Assembly: GCA_035446285.1 (NCBI GenBank)
Contig: DAOMSJ010000002.1
Coordinates: 182,592-246,591 of the forward strand
DNA from: Anaerolineales bacterium
GTDB taxonomy: Bacteria; Chloroflexota; Anaerolineae; Anaerolineales; UBA11579
DNA: 64,000 nucleotides
Direction of reading: 5' to 3'
Part shown: positions 12,541-52,538 of the stretch, in pieces
How positions within the stretch are numbered: position 1 is the first letter of the stretch
How the letters are laid out: each line of letters starts with the position of its first letter
Program-made: the position numbers and the translations under genes
The notes under the pieces: generated by a model
Database searches by the model: none
What the model was told of the DNA's origin: nothing
Seen by the model: only the letters and a program-made list of their open reading frames with translations

Positions 12541-13977
12541 CTATTGGAATACTTGAGGGAACATGAGTACCAGGCGCTGTACTGGCGCCAGGAAGGAGGG
12601 CAGCAGCCCGTAGCCCAGCAGGGTGACCAGCCAGATGAGAGAAAACACCCACACATACGGGTTGGCCATATCCGGGCGCTGACTGAACGGCAGGCGTTCC
12701 ACGGGGCCAACCGGAGCGCGTGGCTCTGGCGCGGCCGTGAGCCAGGCGTGCAACAGGCGCAAGCCGCCGGCCAATAGCCCCAGGCTGCCCAAGAATGAAA
12801 GGATAAGTAGGCCCACAGATTGCTGCCCCACCCCATGCCAAATGGCGAGATGGGCGGCGAAGGGGCCGAGCAGCGGCAGGCCAGCCAGGGCTACCAAGGC
12901 GGCCACGGCAGTGAGCGCCAGCAAGGGGTGGCGGCGCAGGGCTGGGCCCAGCTCTTCCAACTGTAAGCTGGGCGTGTGGCGGTGCAACACGGCCAGGCTG
13001 GCGGCCAGCGCCCACAGCACCCAGGCCTGCGGCAGCAAAAGGGCAAAGAAGGTTTGCAAACCCACAGCGCCACCGAGGCCAATCGCCTGCAGCAGGCCAC
13101 CGGTAGCCAGCATACCGGCGAAGGCCATCATGCGGCCAAGATGGCGCTGCTGTGAGGCCCACACGCCGCCAAGGAATACACCCAGGCTGCCCATGGCGAG
13201 CAACAGCTGGAAAATGGCGGGATTATCGCGCAACCAAACGTAACGCTCCACAAAGCTGAGCAGGAAGATGAGCGCTACGGCGCGTAGGAAGAACGTGAGG
13301 AAGCCGAGCACATACGGCGCGGTTTCCTGCGCCAACATGGGCACCCAGGAATGGAAAGGAAACAACGCCAATAGGAAGCTAAAACCGAGCGCCATCAGCA
13401 AGCCGGCGCGCAACACCAGCTCAAAGTTGCCGGGGTTGCCCTCCACGCCAGTGAGCAGCCAACCGGTGAACAGGATACAGGGCACCGAGAACAGCAAAAA
13501 GATCAGGGCGCGTTGCATGCCGCGGCCGGGCTGTGTGCCAGGCGGTACGAGAAGTGGCACCCACACCAGGAAAGCGGCCGCCAGGAACAGGGCCGCATAC
13601 AAGAAGGGTTGCACGGCCAGCGCGGCCATGAACAGGCCCACGGCGATGAGCGACAAACCAGGAAACAGCTGGCCGGGCCGCGTGAGGAAAGCGCCGAGCA
13701 GCCAAAGGGTTTGGGCGAGATAAATGAAAGTGAGCAGCAAGCGCTGCGTCTCGGCCAGGGTGAAGTTGCGGCCCAGGAAGGTGAGCGTAGGCGCAATCTC
13801 AATAGAAATCGAGCCGAGTTGCAAGACCACATCAATGGGGAACTGCCAGGCGATCCAGGTGAGGATGAAGCTCAGGCCGATGGCGAGATACAGCGGCGTG
13901 TCATCCTTGCGGCGGTAGAGCAGCAAGGCAGCGCCCACGGCGATGGGCAGCAGGATCCACAGGAAGGCCGAGCTCAT
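12541..13977 (-). CDS. Divergent proton-conducting-membrane-transporter (NuoN/MrpD/HyfF-like) subunit
   Basis: 478 aa and polytopic. It carries PF00361-type signatures LFPFHSWVP and LAGLPLLGPFAAH. Its start overlaps the upstream stop (ATGA). Confidence 0.75.
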   Translation of the reverse strand: MSSAFLWILLPIAVGAALLLYRRKDDTPLYLAIGLSFILTWIAWQFPIDVVLQLGSISIEIAPTLTFLGRNFTLAETQRLLLTFIYLAQTLWLLGAFLTRPGQLFPGLSLIAVGLFMAALAVQPFLYAALFLAAAFLVWVPLLVPPGTQPGRGMQRALIFLLFSVPCILFTGWLLTGVEGNPGNFELVLRAGLLMALGFSFLLALFPFHSWVPMLAQETAPYVLGFLTFFLRAVALIFLLSFVERYVWLRDNPAIFQLLLAMGSLGVFLGGVWASQQRHLGRMMAFAGMLATGGLLQAIGLGGAVGLQTFFALLLPQAWVLWALAASLAVLHRHTPSLQLEELGPALRRHPLLALTAVAALVALAGLPLLGPFAAHLAIWHGVGQQSVGLLILSFLGSLGLLAGGLRLLHAWLTAAPEPRAPVGPVERLPFSQRPDMANPYVWVFSLIWLVTLLGYGLLPSFLAPVQRLVLMFPQVFQ

Positions 13978-43295: not shown

Positions 43296-43475
43296 GGAGC
43301 AATTCTAAACCAGTCATGTATGACACCTCACCCCACTGAGTTAAATATTGGCGCACCCTTACCTTCCCTCCTCCCAAAGGAGAGGGAGACGAATGCAACA
43401 CTACAACCAAAATTCAACAGGCGAGGGAAACGGGCGCAGAACAAGCCTCAGAGCTATAATCGCTCACCAGGCCCG

Positions 43476-45386
43476 ATGGGCCGAGGAGTCACGCTGAGCG
43501 AGGAACAACCCACCCACAAATTGGATACGCCGCAGGACAGCAGCCACAGCCAACTGCAGCAGGGAGAAGTGCTGCAGGAGCGCTACGAGATCCAAGAGAT
43601 CGTAGGCATTGGCGGCATGGGGTCAGTGTATCGCGCCCGTGATAAGAACTTCAAAGCCATCCGCCTGGTAGCCATCAAGGAGATGATCAGCCAGGTGACC
43701 GACCCCCTGGTACGCAAGAACATCTTCCAGATCTTTGAGCGCGAAGCCAATATCCTCGCCACGCTGCGCCACCCCTCCATTCCACGCATTTACGATTACT
43801 TCACCATTGGCGAGCGCGCCTACCTGGTGCTGGAGTTCATTCACGGCAAGAACCTGGAGCAATTGCTGGCCGAGAGCAACAACTTCTTCCCTGAGGAGCA
43901 AGTGCTGGCCTGGGCGGTGGAGCTGTGTGATGTGCTGGATTATCTGCACAGCCACAAGCCAGAACCGATCATCTTCCGTGACATTAAGCCCTCCAACATC
44001 ATGAGTACGCTGCAGAACCACATCGCCCTGGTGGATTTTGGCATCGCCAAGGTATTTGAATCTGGCCAGAAGAATACGATGGTGGGAACGCAGGGCTACT
44101 CCCCGCCCGATCAGTACCGCGGCGAGGCGACGCCCAAGGTGGATATTTACGCGCTGGGCGCTACGTTGCACCACCTGCTGACGCTGCGCGATCCGCAGAT
44201 GGAGGCGCCCTTCTCATTTGGCGAGCGCCAGATCAGCGAGATCAACCCCAACGTCAGCCGCGAGATGGCGGCGGTGGTGGAGCGCGCCCTGGAGTACAAG
44301 CCAGAGGACCGCTACGACAGCGCCATTGAAATGAAAGAAGCGCTGATCAACGTGGCGCGCAAGACCGGCACGCTGCTCAACCTGAGCATCCCCACCGCGG
44401 TGAGCGGCAGCATGCCCAGCCGCGGCGTGGGCGTAAAGCCACTGTGGAGCTTTGAAGCTGAAGACGAGCTGCGCAGCTCGGCAGCGTATCATGATGGCAC
44501 GCTGTACATCGGCTGCTACGACAACAACCTGTATGCGCTGGACGCCTCCAACGGTGAGTTCAAGTGGAAGTACCCCACCGACGGCGGCATCACCAGCAAG
44601 CCAGCCATCTTTGACAACAACATTTACTTCGGCTCAGAAGACCGCCGTTTGCACGTCATCTCGACCCGCTCCGGCAAGGTGGTGTGGACGCACTACACTG
44701 AGGGCGCGGTGCGCTCCTCGCCGCGCATTGCTGAAGGGCACGTCTTCATCGGCTCAGATGATGGCAGCCTGCATGCGGTGAGCCTGAGCAGCGGGCGGCT
44801 GGCCTGGCGCTCAGAGGTGGGCTCGCCGGTGCGCTCCACCCCGTGGGTGGGCAACGAGCATGTGTACTTTGGCTCCGAAGCGGGCGATTTTACCGCCACC
44901 GATTTCCGCGGCGACCCGCGCTGGCGCTTCAAGGCCAAGCGCGCCATCACCTCTTCGCCGGTGCTGCAGGACGGCGTGGTGTATTTCAACTCCATGGACG
45001 GCACGCTCTACGCGCTGGACGCCAACTCCGGCTGGGCTGTGTGGCGCTTCCGCCTCGGCAAGGGCAGCATCTGCACCCCGGCCATCGCCGGCAATGTGCT
45101 CTACACCGGCGCCGCCGACCATATCATCTACGCCATTGACACGCGCTCGGCCAAGGAGTTGTGGCGCTATACCACCGAGCACCAGGTCAACGGCTCGCCC
45201 ATCGTGCATCGTGATGCAGTATATTGCGGCTCCGTGGATGGCAGCCTGTATTGCCTGGATGCGGCCAGCGGGCGTTTGCGCTGGCGCTACCAGACGGAGG
45301 CGCCCATCACCGGCACCCCGGTGGCGTATGACGATATGATCTTCATCGGCTCTACCGACAAGAAAGTGTATGCCTTCCTGGCATAG
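43476..45386 (+). CDS. Ser/Thr protein kinase with C-terminal PQQ-type beta-propeller, no TM segment
   Basis: The kinase motifs are GIGGMGSVYRA, VAIKE, IIFRDIKPSN, DFGIA and GTQGYSPPD. They are followed by about 8 repeats of the ...LYALDASNGEFKW type. The start is uncertain; alternative ATGs lie at 43320 and 43248. Confidence 0.85.
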   Translation: MGRGVTLSEEQPTHKLDTPQDSSHSQLQQGEVLQERYEIQEIVGIGGMGSVYRARDKNFKAIRLVAIKEMISQVTDPLVRKNIFQIFEREANILATLRHPSIPRIYDYFTIGERAYLVLEFIHGKNLEQLLAESNNFFPEEQVLAWAVELCDVLDYLHSHKPEPIIFRDIKPSNIMSTLQNHIALVDFGIAKVFESGQKNTMVGTQGYSPPDQYRGEATPKVDIYALGATLHHLLTLRDPQMEAPFSFGERQISEINPNVSREMAAVVERALEYKPEDRYDSAIEMKEALINVARKTGTLLNLSIPTAVSGSMPSRGVGVKPLWSFEAEDELRSSAAYHDGTLYIGCYDNNLYALDASNGEFKWKYPTDGGITSKPAIFDNNIYFGSEDRRLHVISTRSGKVVWTHYTEGAVRSSPRIAEGHVFIGSDDGSLHAVSLSSGRLAWRSEVGSPVRSTPWVGNEHVYFGSEAGDFTATDFRGDPRWRFKAKRAITSSPVLQDGVVYFNSMDGTLYALDANSGWAVWRFRLGKGSICTPAIAGNVLYTGAADHIIYAIDTRSAKELWRYTTEHQVNGSPIVHRDAVYCGSVDGSLYCLDAASGRLRWRYQTEAPITGTPVAYDDMIFIGSTDKKVYAFLA

Positions 45387-45409
45387 CGCTACGCAGAAAG
45401 AGCAGCCCC

Positions 45410-46309
45410 ATGAATTTCTTCAAGAAACTTTTCGGCAAGAAAAAGGCATCCGGCCCGCTGCCGAGCAACGCCGCCACGGCCCCGCTGAGCGAAGCCCAGG
45501 TGTGGGAACTGGCCAATGGCGAGCGCTCGGGCAAGTACATACACCTGATCTCGGGCAGCGCACTGGACCTGGGGCAGCGCCGTGAGAACAACGAAGACAG
45601 CCTGCTGTGCCTTAACGGCACACTGGGCAGCGCTAACTCTGGCCTGCCGCTGGGGCTGTATGTCATCGCCGATGGCATGGGCGGCCACCGCAACGGTGAA
45701 GTGGCCAGCGAAGTGGCCGTGCGCTCGTTGGGCAATTATCTGGTGCAGCGCTTGTACAAGCCGCTGTTTGGGCCAGACCCGCAGCCGACCGAAGAATCCT
45801 TGCGCGAGATGATGGAAGACGCCGTGAACGAAGCGCACCGCGCCGTGCGACGTGCCGCGCCGGGCGGCGGCTGCACGCTGACGGCCGCCTTGGTGCTGGG
45901 CAACCAGCTGGTGATCGCCCATATGGGTGACAGCCGCGCCTACCTGGTGCACCGAGACGGGCGCATGGAGCAGCTCACCAAGGACCACACGCTGGTCAAG
46001 CGTCTGCAGGAGATGGGCCAGCTGAGCGACGAAGAGGCGGCCGATCACCCGCAGAAATCCATGCTGTACCGCGCTCTGGGCCAGGGCGATGTAGTGCAAG
46101 CCGATTTTTACACCGGCACGCTTTCCACGAACGCATTCCTGCTGGTGTGCTCGGATGGTTTGTGGGGCTTTGTAGACGAAGATGACATCCAGACCATCGT
46201 GAATGCCACCGCCAGCCCATACCTGGCCTGCATGCACATGGTGGAAGCCGCCAACGCGGCTGGCGGGCCAGACAACATCTCGGTAGTGCTGGCGCGGCTG
46301 GTGCACTAA
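45410..46309 (+). CDS. PP2C-family Ser/Thr phosphatase
   Basis: Contains NEDS, ADGMGGH, GDSRAYL, CSDGLW and DNISVV. Confidence 0.9.
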   Translation: MNFFKKLFGKKKASGPLPSNAATAPLSEAQVWELANGERSGKYIHLISGSALDLGQRRENNEDSLLCLNGTLGSANSGLPLGLYVIADGMGGHRNGEVASEVAVRSLGNYLVQRLYKPLFGPDPQPTEESLREMMEDAVNEAHRAVRRAAPGGGCTLTAALVLGNQLVIAHMGDSRAYLVHRDGRMEQLTKDHTLVKRLQEMGQLSDEEAADHPQKSMLYRALGQGDVVQADFYTGTLSTNAFLLVCSDGLWGFVDEDDIQTIVNATASPYLACMHMVEAANAAGGPDNISVVLARLVH

Positions 46310-46311
46310 AG

Positions 46312-46352
46312 GAACAGATATCGATAGTGCTTGGCGCTATCGATATCTGTTC
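46312..46352. other. Perfect 16-bp inverted repeat (GAACAGATATCGATAG n9 CTATCGATATCTGTTC)
   Basis: Read directly. It lies between the PP2C stop and the J-vWA start. Confidence 0.9.
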
Positions 46353-46405
46353 TAATACCTATGACCATCGTAGGGGTTGAAGGCTACACTAAGATAAGAC
46401 CACGC

Positions 46406-47902
46406 ATGGCTACCAGCTATCTTGATAATTACTACGCCCGCCTGGGTATTGCGCGTGACGCCAGCCAGGATGAGATTCAGCGGGCCTACCGCCGCGCCGC
46501 TCGCCAGTTCCATCCGGATACCAACAAGCACACCGGCGCCAATGAGCTGTTCCTGCTGGTGCAGGAAGCCTTCGATACGCTGCAAGACCCGCAGAAGCGG
46601 CGTGAGTATGACGCCACCTTGCCGGAAGACATTGATGCGCCGCCCGCGTTGATGGTGAACGCTCTGTACAGCCGCCCGCAGATCACGCCCAATGAACCCG
46701 GCCAGGTCATCTACGTCTTGCTGGACCTCAAGCCCAGCGCCAGCGAAGAAGAGCGCCGGCGCAAGCCGCCGCTCAACGTGGCGCTGGTGCTGGACACCTC
46801 CACCTCGATGGCGGGCACGCGCCTGGGCCAGGTGATCCGCGCCGCCAGCCAGTTTGTCTCGCAACTCTCCGAGCACGATGTGCTCTCGCTGGTCACCTTC
46901 AACGACCGCGCCCAGGTAGTGATCCCGGCCCAGCCTGGCATGGACATCCAGCGGCTCATCTCGCGCATCAGCACCCTGCAGACGAGTGGCGGCACCGAGA
47001 TCTATCAGGGGCTCAAAGCCGGGCTGCACGAAGTGCTGCGCCACCAGCGCCCCAGCGCCATCAACCATATTGTGCTGATCACTGACGGGCGCACCTATGG
47101 CGACGAAGAGGACTGCCTGCGCCTGGCCAGTGATGCCGCCAAGCTGGGCATCCCCATCAGCGCCATTGGCATTGGCCATGAGTGGAACGAAGAGTTTATA
47201 GACCAGTTGGTTTCCAAGGCGGGCGGCAGCAGCCTGTATGCTGACAAGAGCACCGAGATCCACACGCTGCTGGAGAACCGCCTGCAAACCCTGAGCCTGA
47301 GCTATGCCAACAATGTCAAGCTCAATTACGAGAATGGCTTTGGCAGCAAGCTCAACTATGTATTCCGCCTTTCACCGGATGTGGGGCCGGTGGCCGTGGA
47401 GCCGCCCGTCTTTTTGGGCAACGTACCGCAAAACGACAGCCTGAGCCTGCTGTTGGAGTTTGAGCTGGATACACGCGGCACGCATGCGGGCAACTTTATG
47501 CTGGCCGAAGGACGCCTGAGCCTGGATGTGCCCACGCGCCCCACGCCGTCAAACTCAGCGCGCTTCCGCCTGATGCGCCCGGTGGCCGAGAACACCCAAC
47601 CGGAGGCGCCGCCCTCCAGCCTCATCGGGGCGATCGGCAAGCTCTCGCTGTACCGCATGCAGGAGCGCGCCCGCGAGGACATGGAGCACGGCGACCCGCA
47701 GGGCGCGGCCAAGCGCATGCGCATGCTGGCTACGCGGCTGCTCTCGCAAGGCCAGCGCAGCCTGGCGCGCACCGTGCTGCTGGCCGCCGATGATATTAAG
47801 GATGGCGCGGCCATGGGTGCGAAGGAAGGAAAACAGATAAAATACGGCACACGCGCCCTGATTGACGATACCGAAGGGCGCGAGAAACGAGGCGCACGGT
47901 GA
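46406..47902 (+). CDS. J-domain (DnaJ N-terminal) protein fused to a von Willebrand factor A domain
   Basis: The J domain reads YYARLGIARDASQDEIQRAYRRAARQFHPDTN (HPD present). The vWA domain has an intact MIDAS motif, VALVLDTSTSMAG. I chose the start at MATSYL (46406). Confidence 0.85.
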   Translation: MATSYLDNYYARLGIARDASQDEIQRAYRRAARQFHPDTNKHTGANELFLLVQEAFDTLQDPQKRREYDATLPEDIDAPPALMVNALYSRPQITPNEPGQVIYVLLDLKPSASEEERRRKPPLNVALVLDTSTSMAGTRLGQVIRAASQFVSQLSEHDVLSLVTFNDRAQVVIPAQPGMDIQRLISRISTLQTSGGTEIYQGLKAGLHEVLRHQRPSAINHIVLITDGRTYGDEEDCLRLASDAAKLGIPISAIGIGHEWNEEFIDQLVSKAGGSSLYADKSTEIHTLLENRLQTLSLSYANNVKLNYENGFGSKLNYVFRLSPDVGPVAVEPPVFLGNVPQNDSLSLLLEFELDTRGTHAGNFMLAEGRLSLDVPTRPTPSNSARFRLMRPVAENTQPEAPPSSLIGAIGKLSLYRMQERAREDMEHGDPQGAAKRMRMLATRLLSQGQRSLARTVLLAADDIKDGAAMGAKEGKQIKYGTRALIDDTEGREKRGAR

Positions 47903-48408
47903 TCGTCGTTTGCAAAGGTTGTGGCAAAAATCAGGAGCAGGATGATCTGTTCTGCCCGGATTGTGGCGCCAAGCTCATCTCGGATGAAGGCTTGCGCACC
48001 ATGCCCATGGATGGCCCGCTCGGCGGGCTGACCACCACGCGCCTGCAAACCAGCGAGGCGCTGATGCGCCCCAGCGGCCCGGCACGCCTGAATCTGCACA
48101 TCATCCGCAGCGGCCAGATTTTGCCGCTGGAGGGCCCCGGAGAATTCGTTGTCGGCCGTGTTAGCTCCGGCCAATCCATCCTGCCGGATGTTGACCTGGA
48201 GCCGTATGCGGCCTACGAATCGGGCGTTTCTCGCCTGCATGCACGCATCCGCATCCAGAACGACGAGATCTCCATCATGGACCTGGGCTCGGCCAACGGC
48301 ACACGCCTGAACAACGAGAAGCTCTCGCCGCACCAGCCCTATTCGATTCATCACAAAGATGTGCTGCGCTTTGGGCGCATGAGCATCCAAGCCCTCACTG
48401 GTGACTAA
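47899..48408 (+). CDS. Zinc-ribbon + FHA domain protein
   Basis: The N-terminus has CKGCG...CPDCG. The FHA region reads FVVGRV...VSRLHARI...IMDLGSANGTRLNNEKL. A GTG start overlaps the upstream stop (GTGA). Confidence 0.85.
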   Translation: MIVVCKGCGKNQEQDDLFCPDCGAKLISDEGLRTMPMDGPLGGLTTTRLQTSEALMRPSGPARLNLHIIRSGQILPLEGPGEFVVGRVSSGQSILPDVDLEPYAAYESGVSRLHARIRIQNDEISIMDLGSANGTRLNNEKLSPHQPYSIHHKDVLRFGRMSIQALTGD

Positions 48409-48417
48409 GGAGCCTGC

Positions 48418-48660
48418 ATGCCGCACACGGTATTGATCCACCTACATAATGAAGACCCCGTGGTGGGCGAGATCGAAGACATGCCCAACCCGGCTGATAC
48501 GGTTTTGCGTGTGCAAAACCCGCGCAGGCGTGATGGCAAGGATCTGCACTACCTGCAGAGTGATGTGACCACTGTATTTTGGTCGTGGGGCCGCATCAAC
48601 TTTTTGGAAGTTCTGCCGACTGGCGGAGAAGACGAGATCATTGGTTTCGTGAGGGAATAA
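48418..48660 (+). CDS. Hypothetical small protein (80 aa)
   Basis: Lies 9 nt downstream of the FHA gene on the same strand. It has clean coding character but no family was recognised. Confidence 0.6.
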   Translation: MPHTVLIHLHNEDPVVGEIEDMPNPADTVLRVQNPRRRDGKDLHYLQSDVTTVFWSWGRINFLEVLPTGGEDEIIGFVRE

Positions 48661-48756
48661 CCTAAATCCACGGATAAACACAGATGCAAAAACAGATGTA
48701 TCAGATTTATCGGTTTGAATATCTGCGTTCATCTGTGGATAATGCAATTTCTGACT

Positions 48757-49530
48757 ATGACTGAATCTCAATTTACCAACAAACGTATTCTGGTGGTGGA
48801 TGATGAGGAGCGCATTGTGCGCTTCATTCGCCTCAACCTGGAGCAGGATGGCTTTCAAGTGGAAGAAGCTTTTTCCGGCAAGAAGGCAATGGATAAGCTA
48901 CGCCAAAGCCTGCCCGACATGGTGCTGCTGGATGTGATGCTGCCAGATATTGACGGCTTTGAGGTACTGCGCCTGATCCGCGAGAACAATGATGTGCCCG
49001 TGATCATGCTGACCGCCAAGTCTGAGGAAGATGACCGCGTGCGCGGCCTGGAGCTGGGCGCGGATGATTACGTGACCAAGCCGTTCAGCCCGCGCGAGCT
49101 GGTGAGCCGCGTGCGCGCCGTACTGCGCCGCACCGAGGCGCAGCGCGGCAGCGAGGGCATCATCCAGGTGGATGAGCGCCTCAAGCTGGATTTTGACCGC
49201 CGCGAGGTGTGGGTGGATGGCAAGCTGGTCAAGCTGCGCCCCACCGAGTATCGCCTGCTCTATCACCTGGTGCAGAACGCTGGCTGGGTGGTGACGCACG
49301 ACCAGATCCTGGCCAAGGTGTGGGGCTATGAATACCGCGATGAGCCGCATTATGTGCGCTTATATGTGAATTACCTGCGTGAAAAGATCGAAAAGGACCC
49401 GGCGCAGCCCAAGTACATTCTCACCGAGCGCGGTGTGGGCTACCGCTTTGTGGACTTTAAGCGTGAGCAGCAAGACGCCGCCAAAGAATCCAGCAAAGAA
49501 CCGAAAGACAGCAAAAAGAGCAAGAAGTAA
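48757..49530 (+). CDS. OmpR/PhoB-family response regulator (no adjacent histidine kinase)
   Basis: The receiver domain reads RILVVDDEE...[14 protein letters not shown]...LTAK. The winged helix reads [12 protein letters not shown]...GVGYRF. It ends in a Lys/Glu-rich tail. I chose the start at MTESQF. Confidence 0.88.
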
Positions 49531-49588: not shown

Positions 49589-49616
49589 AAAGCCCGCTGA
49601 CAGCGGGCTTTTTTTG
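49589..49616. terminator. Intrinsic terminator (bidirectional context) after the response regulator gene
   Basis: The sequence is AAAGCCCGC tgaca GCGGGCTTT followed by tttttg. Confidence 0.8.
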
Positions 49617-49620
49617 ATGC

Positions 49621-49977
49621 CTAGTTGTTCTTGGCGATGTGCTTATCCATCTCGTCGGCCAGGGCCACGAGATAGTGCCAGTTGTAGATACCGTACTTGT
49701 GGCCGTCTTCCCATTCAATGTTGATAGCGTAGTTGCCCACCGCTTCGATACCCACCAGGCGGGTGGTGCTGGCGTTCATCAACGGAATGATGAATACGCC
49801 GGGATCTGGCTCCGGCTTCATGTTCTCATGGCCGCCGCGGCACTGGGCGCACGGGCAGGCATTGCGCAGCAGATCGAAGGGATAGCTGACCACGCGGCCG
49901 TTGCTCCATTCGATGGTGAGGCGCGCATTGGCGCGGTTGGCAGTAATGGACTTGGGAGTGGGTTCAATTTCAGGCAT
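49621..49977 (-). CDS. DUF971 (gamma-butyrobetaine hydroxylase-like N-terminal) domain protein
   Basis: Contains LTIEWSNGRVVSYPFDLLRNACPCAQCRG and IEWEDGHKYGIYNWHYL. Confidence 0.8.
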   Translation of the reverse strand: MPEIEPTPKSITANRANARLTIEWSNGRVVSYPFDLLRNACPCAQCRGGHENMKPEPDPGVFIIPLMNASTTRLVGIEAVGNYAINIEWEDGHKYGIYNWHYLVALADEMDKHIAKNN

Positions 49978-50645: not shown

Positions 50646-51419
50646 CTACTGCCCCCAGATCAAAGGAATGCTGTATTCGAAGACACAGCGGAAGCCGCGG
50701 TTGAAACCCGCCGAACCGGGTTCGTGCCCCAGCCGTGAATAGGCCAGGCTGTACACCGGCGGGTCAAACCAGGCGGCGCCACGCAACACCACGCGGGCTT
50801 CATCAAACCAGTCATCCACCCATTCGCGCACATTGCCGCCCATATCCATCACCCCGTAGGGGCTGCTACCGCCGGTGAAGCTGCCTACGGCAGCGGTAGT
50901 GGCCGTAGCAGCATAGCGGCCCACCTGGGCACGCACATCAAAATCATCGGTTTCGCCCCAGGCAAAGCTGTTGCCATAGGGGCCGCGGGCGGCCTTCTCC
51001 CATTCCAGCTCGTGCGGCAAACGGCCGCCAGCCCACTCGCAGAACTCTTGTGCTTCGTACCAGGTGACATACACCACCGGGTGGTCAGCATATTCCTTGA
51101 GATAGAAAAAGGGATTGCGCTCTGGGCCAACGGGGTAAACACAGGCGCCCACATTGACGCATTTGCGGTACTGGGCATTGGTGACCTGCGTGCGTGAGAT
51201 CCAGTAGCCCGGCAGGCTGGTGTGCATGGTGGTTTGGGCGCTAATACTGGTGGGGGTGTTGTTGGGGTGCTGCCCGGCAGTGAATTCGCCACCAGGAACA
51301 AACACCTCCAACTGTTCGCTACGCGGATTTAAGCGAATATACGACCTGCACGAAGGCAGCAGGCCAATCAAGGCGCAAGCGATGGCAATTGTTGCCCATT
51401 TTTTAACCCACACGAACAA
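50646..51419 (-). CDS. Formylglycine-generating-enzyme (SUMF1/FGE-sulfatase) domain lipoprotein
   Basis: Has the lipobox LLPSC. Contains HPVVYVTWYEAQEFCEW, GRLPHELEWEKAARG, GNVREWV, RGAAW and GFRCV. Confidence 0.85.
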   Translation of the reverse strand: MFVWVKKWATIAIACALIGLLPSCRSYIRLNPRSEQLEVFVPGGEFTAGQHPNNTPTSISAQTTMHTSLPGYWISRTQVTNAQYRKCVNVGACVYPVGPERNPFFYLKEYADHPVVYVTWYEAQEFCEWAGGRLPHELEWEKAARGPYGNSFAWGETDDFDVRAQVGRYAATATTAAVGSFTGGSSPYGVMDMGGNVREWVDDWFDEARVVLRGAAWFDPPVYSLAYSRLGHEPGSAGFNRGFRCVFEYSIPLIWGQ

Positions 51420-51524: not shown

Positions 51525-52538
51525 ATGGCAGAAAAAGCATTGCTCAATAAACGCTACCAGCTGCAGGATTTTCTGGAAAAAGGCGGCATGGCCAGCGTGT
51601 ACCGCGGCCGTGACCTGATGCTGGAGCGCGATGTGGCCATCAAGGTGCTGCGCGAAGAGTATTCCAAGGATGCCGGCTTCCGTGAGCGCTTCCGCCAGGA
51701 GGCCAAGGCAGCCGCCAACCTGAGCCACAGCAATATCGTCACCGTGTACGACTTTGGTTACGATGAGGAGCATCTCTTCATTGTGATGGAGTACGTGCCC
51801 GGCACCGACCTGAACACGCTCATCAAGCAGAAACGTATCTATTCGCTGGAGGAGGGCATTCCTCTGGTGATTCAGGCCTGCAAGGGCTTGGGCTATGCCC
51901 ACCGGGCCGGGCTGGTGCACTGTGACATTAAGCCGCACAATTTTCTGGTGACGCCAGATGGCCGCGTCAAAGTGACCGATTTTGGTATCGCCCGGGCGCT
52001 GGCCTCGATCAATCCGCGTGAAGAGCAGGAAGTAGTGTGGGGTTCGCCACAATACTTCTCGCCCGAGCAGGCAGCCGGCAGTGCCCCCTCCCCGGCCTCC
52101 GACGTGTACAGCATGGGCGTGATCATGTACCTGATGTTCACCGGCCAGCTGCCCTTCACCAGCAAGACCCCGGCCGAACTGGGCCAGCAACACCGTTATG
52201 AGCAGCCTGTGCCGCCCAACCAGCTCAACCCCAACATTCCGCCAGCACTAAACGAGATCATGATGAAAGTGCTCTCCAAGGAGCCCTCGGCGCGCTACCG
52301 CGCCGCAGACCAACTCGGCCGCGTGCTGCTGACCTTCGCCGCGCCGCAAGTGGCGGCCGACCGCGCCCAGGATGCCCCCACCATCAGCCTGCCCGCCGCT
52401 GAGCTGGAGAACGCCGCACCCGAAGGCAAAACCGACTGGGTGGCGGTGCTGCTGGGCTTGCTGGCGGCTGTGGCCGTGGGCGGCCTGCTGCCCTTCTGGA
52501 TGTGGGTGTATTTGGTCTATAACCCACCGTTGCAGTAA
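51525..52538 (+). CDS. Ser/Thr protein kinase with a C-terminal TM anchor
   Basis: Contains GGMASVYRG, VAIKVL, HCDIKPHN, DFGIA and SPEQA. The C-terminal TM helix is WVAVLLGLLAAVAVGGLLPFWMWVYLV. Confidence 0.9.
   Translation: MAEKALLNKRYQLQDFLEKGGMASVYRGRDLMLERDVAIKVLREEYSKDAGFRERFRQEAKAAANLSHSNIVTVYDFGYDEEHLFIVMEYVPGTDLNTLIKQKRIYSLEEGIPLVIQACKGLGYAHRAGLVHCDIKPHNFLVTPDGRVKVTDFGIARALASINPREEQEVVWGSPQYFSPEQAAGSAPSPASDVYSMGVIMYLMFTGQLPFTSKTPAELGQQHRYEQPVPPNQLNPNIPPALNEIMMKVLSKEPSARYRAADQLGRVLLTFAAPQVAADRAQDAPTISLPAAELENAAPEGKTDWVAVLLGLLAAVAVGGLLPFWMWVYLVYNPPLQ

Follow-up and report, generated by a model that had tools for sequence, protein, structure and literature searches.

The stretch analysed here (the window: 64,000 nt from an Anaerolineales bacterium, positions 182,592 to 246,591 of contig DAOMSJ010000002.1, assembly GCA_035446285.1) carries on its + strand, at ~43.4-49.6 kb, six open reading frames which encode a Hanks-type Ser/Thr kinase, a PP2C phosphatase, a protein joining a J domain to a vWA domain (J-vWA), a zinc-ribbon and FHA protein (ZnR-FHA), an 80-aa protein (p80) and an OmpR-type response regulator. 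A preliminary description of this DNA had presented them as six same-strand genes with short or overlapping junctions, forming a self-contained module controlled by Thr phosphorylation, similar to the TerY-P systems and possibly involved in stress or conflict response. The layout is as it had been described, down to the overlapping GTGA at 47899-47902 and the gap of 9 nt at 48409-48417, and every one of the domains was matched in Pfam, with p80, then called an unknown, remaining without a hit. The coordinates of the genes and of the other features considered are collected in Table 1.

Table 1 Features of the six-gene cluster and of its neighbourhood (window positions; ~ marks approximate domain limits).
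Feature	Position	Strand	Basis or remark
Extended -10 promoter element CTATAAT	43454..43460	+	k-mer survey and anchored alignment of upstream regions
Shine-Dalgarno sequence AGGAG of the kinase gene	43484..43488	+	5 nt upstream of CTG 43494
Hanks-type Ser/Thr kinase with C-terminal PQQ-type beta-propeller	43494..45386	+	Pfam
Kinase domain	~43584-44318		
Beta-propeller	~44442-45380		
PP2C (PPM) Ser/Thr phosphatase, Stp1/PrpC type	45410..46309	+	Pfam PP2C_2 and PP2C
Perfect 19-bp stem-loop just 3' of the PP2C stop	46312..46352	+	inverted repeat I1; no U-tract
J-vWA, 498 aa	46406..47902	+	Pfam DnaJ and VWA
J domain	~46427-46615		
vWA domain	~46775-47272		
Predicted beta-sandwich of J-vWA	~47318-47590		
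Predicted helical C-terminal region of J-vWA	~47615-47863		
Near-invariant C-terminal motif KQIKYGTRAL	47831..47860	+	conservation; candidate phospho-acceptor/FHA docking site
Zinc-ribbon and FHA protein, 169 aa, ArnA-like architecture	47899..48408	+	Pfam
p80, stand-alone 80-aa protein	48418..48660	+	conservation; AlphaFold2 model
Long imperfect hairpin, p80-regulator gap	48666..48740	+	RNA fold -29.1 kcal/mol, z -5.1
OmpR/PhoB-family response regulator (receiver and winged helix)	48757..49530	+	Pfam
Intrinsic terminator	49589..49618	+	inverted repeat I3; GC-rich 11-bp stem and T7
DUF971/GBBH-like_N protein	49621-49977	-	semi-conserved neighbour
Protein with a single transmembrane segment	50064-50561	-	semi-conserved neighbour
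FGE-sulfatase-domain protein, lipoprotein-like N-terminus	50646-51419	-	between the single-segment protein and the second kinase
Second kinase, C-terminal transmembrane anchor	51525-52538	+	semi-conserved neighbour

The active-site or binding residues of the kinase, the PP2C, the FHA domain, the MIDAS (for metal ion-dependent adhesion site) of the vWA domain, the J domain (HPD) and the receiver are all conserved. The kinase matches Pkinase (1.4e-42) and, in the propeller, Beta-prop_ACSF4 (4.2e-69) and PQQ_2 (2.6e-54), and its relatives keep the VAIK, RD and DFG motifs together with Thr202 and Thr206 of the activation loop. It had been described as soluble, in agreement with which none of the six proteins contains a transmembrane-like segment (maximal Kyte-Doolittle value, KD19, <=1.37). 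Its best NCBIfam match is AfsK of Streptomyces, which is also a soluble kinase of the Hanks type and ends in a PQQ-type beta-propeller, although at 213 bits against an equivalog cutoff of 1300 it can only be regarded as an architectural analogue; the partners of AfsK, which are AfsR, DivIVA and KbpA, are absent at the window cluster. In the phosphatase, the motifs DGMGGH, GDSR, DG and DN are conserved among 73 orthologues. The third protein covers the full DnaJ model (1.9e-21) and matches VWA (1.1e-23), and both motifs which had been pointed out, HPD in the J domain and DTSTS in the MIDAS, are present and invariant in the relatives: H36, P37 and D38 lie within FHPD, while the MIDAS pattern DxSxS..T..D keeps its residues D, S, S, T and D. 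Two conserved beta-like segments lie between the two domains, the protein is conserved over its full length (at least 120 clusters among those listed; 77 loci), and the start was set at ATG 46406 because all homologues are ~498 aa long. ZnR-FHA starts at the GTG which overlaps the J-vWA stop. Its FHA hit is clear (2.7e-15) and its Zn-ribbon hits are weak; the CxxC..CxxCG ribbon and the phosphothreonine-binding residues (GR / SR.H / NGT) are invariant among the relatives, as is appropriate for the phosphothreonine reader that had been proposed. The regulator, starting at ATG 48757, matches Response_reg (1.7e-33) and Trans_reg_C (6.8e-25), and the DD, D, T and K residues of its receiver pocket are conserved in 60 orthologues. 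It had been called an orphan, which is borne out by the surroundings: no Pfam family of the histidine kinase type was found within 10 kb of the regulator in L081 and L083-L085 (loci are referred to by L numbers), and histidine kinases are not among the 25 commonest families of the flanks.

The kinase start given previously, ATG 43320, cannot be retained as it lies upstream of the conserved -10 box CTATAAT. Another candidate, ATG 43476, was rejected after comparison with the relatives, as L002 has it out of frame and L003 lacks it. The gene most likely starts at CTG 43494, as judged from the pattern of conservation: a Shine-Dalgarno sequence followed by an in-frame CTG occurs at the homologous position in 49 of 61 loci, the remainder having ATG, GTG or TTG there, and in 20 loci the stretch from the upstream in-frame stop to the kinase domain offers no canonical start codon (ATG, GTG, TTG). 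Bacteria seldom use CUG starts, and in this case the arrangement is conserved across an order. As a weak CUG start is conserved at the head of an operon with a strong promoter, the kinase may deliberately be produced in sub-stoichiometric amounts, which would be an unusual extra case of built-in stoichiometry control.

Upstream of this start, the k-mer CTATAAT is found in 59 of 72 upstream regions (~1.8 expected), and the anchored alignment of 71-72 such regions gives the consensus tTTGCAat, ~17 nt, tG..GgCTATAAT, which has the features of a sigma-70-type promoter. Its -35 element reads TTGCAA in most relatives and is degenerate in the window clade. The same alignment shows only the -35 and -10 elements as conserved, and no operator for the regulator was recognised upstream of the operon. 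At the other end, a predicted intrinsic terminator (AAAGCCCGCTGaCAGCGGGCTTTTTTT; fold -18.2 kcal/mol, z -4.3) lies 59 nt 3' of the regulator stop, and no other terminator with a U-tract was found between the promoter and 49589-49618; an Rfam scan of the region gave no match at threshold. With the predicted promoter and terminator bracketing six tightly packed genes, the cluster can be taken to form one operon.

A pattern scan of 185,579 species genomes returned J-vWA relatives in at least 565 of them, nearly all from Anaerolineales or Chloroflexota, and the window proteins were compared by tblastn with the best 80 loci, among which L001, from an uncultured Anaerolineaceae metagenome-assembled genome, is ~98% identical to the window. 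In all 69 loci long enough to hold the six genes, their order and strand are unchanged, over a range of J-vWA identity that extends from 98% to as little as 40%. Chance falls far short of explaining this arrangement, and an adjacency specific to this genome is ruled out. The median intergenic distances are, in order, 27, 9, -4, 14 and 4 nt; the 4-nt overlap between the J-vWA stop and the FHA start is found in 48 of 70 loci, and these two genes are predicted to be translationally coupled. When the loci of the window's own clade are set aside, identity to the respective window protein is highest for the regulator (73-89%, median 79%), followed by the kinase (56-83%, median 60%), p80 (45-79%, median 58%), the PP2C (42-76%, median 49%), J-vWA (40-68%, median 43%) and the FHA protein (34-67%, median 41%). 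The surroundings are conserved as well, with genes for an ABC transporter, an amidohydrolase, CinA, DAO and OCD upstream, and a DUF971-like gene, a membrane protein, a second kinase, rpe, Asp23, DAK2/FakA, DegV and RecG downstream, a housekeeping synteny which is stable across distant genomes, even at 46% J-vWA identity. The operon is probably vertically inherited in Anaerolineales and is kept intact across hundreds of species of this order of the Chloroflexota. Two loci carry other taxonomic labels. L025 (JAWOIF010000031.1) is labelled Bacteroidales and contains the complete downstream half of the operon, the label being probably a binning error, while L031 (DYIZ01000009.1) is labelled Candidatus Aquidulcis (class Limnocylindria), and the operon could extend beyond Anaerolineae.

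The closest characterised analogue of the cluster, which had been missed in the preliminary description, is the archaellum-regulatory phospho-switch ArnA/ArnB of Sulfolobus acidocaldarius (PDB 8S05, 5A8I and 5A8J; PMC12852372, PMC6509490). When the J-vWA profile was compared with the PDB, the best match other than to J domains was ArnB (8S05_A, E 5.6e-17), ahead of CLCA, ITIH4, 4FX5 and ArnE; over the vWA region the scores are 64.9 bits for ArnB, 54 for CLCA, 51 for ITIH4 and 41 for ArnE, and a single sequence without its J domain again has ArnB as top match (2.5e-11). The two best matches of the ZnR-FHA profile are the ArnA chains 5A8I (1e-13) and 8S05_C (3.3e-13), to which its zinc-finger and FHA segments both align. 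Since the two members of the coupled pair each find ArnB or ArnA as best match, ArnA/ArnB are the nearest characterised relatives, and the J-vWA/ZnR-FHA pair appears to be a bacterial relative of the archaeal switch.

In Sulfolobus, ArnA consists of a zinc finger and an FHA domain, and ArnB of a vWA domain, a beta-sandwich which the vWA domain divides, and a C-terminal regulatory helical bundle (PMC12852372). The zinc finger of ArnA docks on unphosphorylated ArnB, the Hanks kinase ArnC then phosphorylates Thr residues of the bundle sequentially, by which the FHA domain is recruited and the complex tightens, and PP2A reverses the phosphorylation, while the downstream route to transcription is unknown (PMC12852372). 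The window operon has the same composition in several respects: a zinc-finger and FHA protein is paired with a vWA protein encoded by the adjacent gene and predicted to continue into a beta-sandwich and a helical region, a Hanks kinase and a Ser/Thr phosphatase are the partners, and the effect on transcription would be indirect. The AlphaFold2 model of J-vWA residues 305-498 has six strands and four helices (pLDDT, the predicted local distance difference test, 77), and the order modelled after the vWA domain, a beta-sandwich followed by four helices, would be the same as in ArnB. The window operon differs from the archaeal system in being bacterial (Chloroflexota), in the N-terminal J domain of its vWA protein, in the phosphatase, which is a PP2C and not a PP2A, in the kinase, which carries a beta-propeller and not OB/TPR domains, and in the addition of a putatively Sm-like 80-aa protein and an OmpR-type regulator. 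While ArnB has many phosphorylated positions, J-vWA has one dominant conserved Thr, T482. Thr is conserved at this position in 99% of 77 orthologues, and no other Thr outside the vWA core is near-invariant. It lies within KQIKYGTRAL, in a tail of low pLDDT where K476, Q477, Y480, T482, R483 and L485 are invariant. A Leu at pT+3, the position held here by L485, is a common FHA preference. On these grounds T482 is the prime candidate for a phospho-acceptor and FHA docking site. A phospho-Thr motif of the GarA/OdhI type was also looked for in the linker of ZnR-FHA and was rejected, as the linker is unconserved save T34. This T34 (47998-48000) is a near-invariant Thr just past the zinc ribbon, at the start of the linker, and by analogy with GarA/OdhI could be a second phosphosite.

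The most probable explanation in our view, to which we give a probability of roughly 0.55, is that the core of the operon is a cytoplasmic Ser/Thr phospho-switch of the ArnAB type; the self-contained Thr-phosphorylation module proposed earlier is supported to this extent, as kinase, PP2C, vWA protein and FHA reader are co-conserved in an operon-like arrangement. The AfsK-like kinase, made in small amounts from its CUG start, would be activated through its beta-propeller and the Thr residues of its activation loop, and would phosphorylate the flexible C-terminal region of J-vWA, most likely at T482. ZnR-FHA might sit pre-docked by way of its zinc ribbon, in the manner of ArnA on ArnB, and its FHA domain would then clamp the phosphothreonine, switching the complex from loose to tight until the Stp1-like PP2C resets it. 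The J domain, acting in cis, would recruit DnaK-ATP, and this would remodel or dissolve either the complex itself or a client bound at the MIDAS. As output we propose the co-transcribed orphan OmpR-type regulator, which could be gated by sequestration and release or by direct Thr phosphorylation. The putatively Sm-like p80 might serve as adaptor, with its acidic C-terminal tail (..IIGFVRE-COOH) as candidate MIDAS ligand. We consider the steps involving remodelling by DnaK, the regulator output and the p80 adaptor considerably less likely than the core of the switch; the T482 site, p80 as MIDAS ligand and the gating of the regulator are what we infer from the conservation patterns.

Several results weigh against this explanation. 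Homology of J-vWA to ArnB could be detected over the vWA domain only: when residues 305-498 were compared with PDB sequences and Pfam at E values up to 10, neither ArnB, ArnE nor ArnB_C was matched, and a Foldseek search of the corresponding model against the PDB gave no match with E <0.6, so the homology of the C-terminal half is unproven. As the Asp pocket of the regulator is intact, control by a distant histidine kinase may be all there is to its regulation. The Foldseek E-values behind the Sm-like assignment of p80 are weak (~1e-2).

For p80 itself, the sources say only 'hypothetical', and no match was found in Pfam, NCBIfam or PADLOC, in line with its earlier description as an unknown. 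The family comprises 991 clusters, almost all of 80 aa, with NEDP, NPRRRDGKD and the C-terminal tail IIGFVRE as invariant motifs. A profile search of 1.84 billion representatives gave 261 members at 50% identity, and it returned only stand-alone proteins of ~80 aa and fragments, with no informative fusions. The AlphaFold2 model is, with good confidence, a five-stranded barrel (pLDDT 86.8), for which the top 50 Foldseek matches are all Sm/LSm proteins at E values of 7e-3 or worse and TM-scores of 0.5-0.6. The protein may thus be a Sm/LSm-like small beta-barrel, one which is modelled without the N-terminal Sm helix and whose tail is invariant but flexible (pLDDT 63 for residues 71-80).

TerY-P systems, to which the cluster had first been compared, consist of a TerY-like vWA protein, a PP2C and a kinase whose C-terminus is fused to a zinc ribbon, or in the defence variant to an OB fold, and are linked to tellurite resistance and DNA-restriction systems (Anantharaman et al. 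2012, summarised in PMC11090510). Understood in these terms, the operon would be a stress or conflict module in which a metal-sensing kinase/PP2C/vWA triad has been extended by FHA and J domains to serve in tellurite-type stress or antiphage defence. Part of the likeness stands, since the kinase, PP2C and vWA proteins correspond to the parts list of the triad in that source, are likewise encoded together and would work as a phosphorylation switch; the kinase domain also hits the defence-associated kinase models of PADLOC, though these are generic Pkinase matches. Membership does not follow from this composition. The best relatives of the vWA domain are ArnB, CLCA, ITIH and YfbK-type proteins, and a tblastn search of the vWA against 72,556 plasmids returned only 79 records, comprising Deinococcus MerR-vWA pairs, cyanobacterial vWA proteins and Salmonella (enterobacterial) YfbK, with no TerY among them. 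Neither the vWA protein, ZnR-FHA nor p80 has a match in PADLOC. The vWA of the window is thereby set apart from TerY indirectly, through its best relatives, the plasmid search and PADLOC. The C-terminus of the window kinase is a PQQ-type beta-propeller, in place of the zinc ribbon or OB fold of TerY-P kinases, and the zinc ribbon is found on the FHA protein instead; the FHA and J domains, p80 and the regulator are additions. No ter, nuclease, restriction or mobile context was found at the cluster, its GC content matches that of the flanks, and the housekeeping synteny from CinA, DAO and OCD to rpe, Asp23, DAK2, DegV and RecG is fixed in distant genomes. As the PADLOC hits are limited to generic kinase and PP2C matches, we reject the defence reading, and with the GC content and synteny just mentioned the conflict-response part of the earlier proposal falls too. 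A TerY-P-like role is in our opinion highly improbable, and the likeness is one of theme and not of membership. The physiological role is probably a decision in core growth, stress or proteostasis rather than defence.

The same synteny, together with the phosphatase and the regulator, could also be read as that of a general housekeeping locus of a eukaryote-like Ser/Thr kinase and PP2C, equivalent to PrkC-PrpC of Firmicutes or to FhaA/FhaB-PstP-PknA/B of Actinobacteria, which would control growth, division or envelope homeostasis via an essential regulator similar to WalR, MtrA or RpaB. J-vWA, ZnR-FHA and p80 would then be substrates or scaffolds, and no dedicated ArnAB-type switch would exist. 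In line with this, the PP2C lies just under the cutoff of the nearest NCBIfam model, the Stp1/PrpC equivalog Stp1_PP2C_phos (214.8 bits vs 230), the nearest models of the regulator are MtrA, RpaB and YycF (WalR), all below cutoff, and no protein of the operon is more conserved across the order than the regulator. A membrane-anchored second kinase is furthermore encoded downstream, followed by rpe, Asp23, DAK2/FakA, DegV and RecG, and the region from this kinase through rpe to RecG presumably resembles the prpC-prkC-...-rpe-...-recG region of Bacillus. Against it, no FtsW/RodA, penicillin-binding protein or PASTA components were found, and the tight coupling of the J-vWA and ZnR-FHA genes, with ArnB and ArnA as best matches, argues for a dedicated pair. 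We hold this explanation to be unlikely, although it is largely compatible with an ArnAB-type switch, as it concerns the physiological role more than the mechanism.

This is also the case for a third possibility, that the operon is a dedicated proteostasis or heat-shock module in which J-vWA is a specialised Hsp70 co-chaperone, its client binding being tuned by phosphorylation, and in which the regulator controls chaperone genes such as the neighbouring hsp20. The HPD motif of the J domain is invariant, and in 21 loci from several subclades an HSP20 gene directly follows the regulator on the same strand, 16-250 nt downstream (among them L005, L007, L009, L012, L013, L023-L027, L032, L033, L038, L045, L052, L054, L057, L064, L078 and L080); in L083-L085, Pfam HSP20 is matched at 13166-13609. 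In 37 loci, a second response regulator of the NarL type comes after the regulator, either directly or past HSP20. Both HSP20 and the NarL-type regulator are absent from the window clade, however, and HSP20 is absent from ~2/3 of the loci; no linked dnaK, grpE or clpB was found, nor, apart from the promoter, any shared operator motif. Such a specialised role is thus quite unlikely.

The intact HPD and basic helix II of the J domain are those expected of J-domain proteins (Hsp40 class III), which makes it a candidate recruiter of DnaK. The sources name the J-vWA protein only 'VWA domain-containing' or 'hypothetical', so that it can be regarded as uncharacterised, and the combination of J domain, VWA and DnaK in bacteria was not found in the literature searched. 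Nor does that literature contain a description of any fusion between a J domain and a MIDAS-containing vWA scaffold. This leads to a more far-reaching proposal, which we put forward only tentatively and hold to be rather doubtful: phosphorylation by the kinase, on Thr, of the ArnB-like vWA scaffold might license the Hsp70 recruited by the J domain to remodel a complex, which would contain the Sm-like adaptor and the orphan two-component response regulator. If this were true, the device would combine in one switch Ser/Thr signalling of the eukaryote-like kind, ATP hydrolysis by a chaperone and two-component transcriptional output, the ArnA/ArnB module would predate the archaeal/bacterial divide or have crossed it, and a mechanism would be suggested for the downstream step of ArnAB-type systems. 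Anaerolineales are abundant filamentous bacteria of sludge, sediments and the subsurface, and to our knowledge almost nothing is known about their signalling. Among their multi-gene units the operon ranks with the most stable, with a regulator ~80% identical across the order. As the same predicted transcript of this bacterial relative of ArnA/ArnB encodes both a DNA-binding regulator, the candidate output, and a J domain which with DnaK is a candidate engine for remodelling, the question of how ArnAB-type FHA-vWA switches pass on their state becomes directly testable.

As a kind, switches made of FHA, vWA, kinase and phosphatase components are known, and bacterial operons combining the four have already been described. 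In Deinococcus radiodurans, DRA0331-DRA0334 encode a vWA protein, a Ser/Thr protein kinase, a FraH-like FHA protein and a KI-FHA-PP2C, for which a push-pull of FHA against phosphatase on kinase signalling was shown experimentally (bioRxiv 10.64898/2026.01.23.701218). As in the window, a vWA protein, a Hanks kinase, an FHA protein and a PP2C are joined in one operon. The kinase is however membrane-bound there and the PP2C carries a KI-FHA domain of its own, while a J domain, p80 and a response regulator are missing and the gene order differs. The Deinococcus plasmid relatives closest to the window vWA are moreover not found in operons of this type but in MerR-vWA pairs. These pairs, the closest plasmid-borne relatives of the vWA, consist of a MerR-type regulator gene and a vWA gene with a 4-nt overlap (Deinococcus L086 5282-7134; L088 6270-8134), and are another case of this vWA subfamily coupled to a transcription factor. 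PpkA-PppA-Fha1 of the Pseudomonas H1 type VI secretion system is a further assembly switch made of a Hanks kinase, a PP2C, an FHA reader and a vWA domain. It differs in that its vWA domain belongs to the kinase and is periplasmic, and in its output, which is assembly of the secretion system; no secretion genes are found at the window cluster. The six-gene version with a J-fused ArnB-like vWA, a putatively Sm-like protein and an orphan regulator is undescribed in the literature searched.

Of the genes downstream of the operon in the window, those for the DUF971/GBBH-like_N protein, the protein with a single transmembrane segment and the second kinase are neighbours in 30-36 loci, whereas the FGE-sulfatase-domain protein was matched only in the three closest loci, L001-L003, where its identity goes from 96% down to 53%. 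Within the operon, two predicted hairpins are specific to the clade of the window. The long imperfect one in the gap between p80 and the regulator belongs to no Rfam family, its sole match being sub-threshold and miRNA-like, and it is kept in the two closest relatives, L002 and L003; a promoter-like match (48715-48743) overlaps it in this expanded gap. The perfect stem-loop behind the PP2C gene (RNA fold -31.8 kcal/mol, z -10.2) lies in the PP2C to J-vWA gap, which measures 96 nt in the window compared to a median of 9 nt in the other loci, and could serve in processing or stability, or else represent a small palindrome that was inserted.

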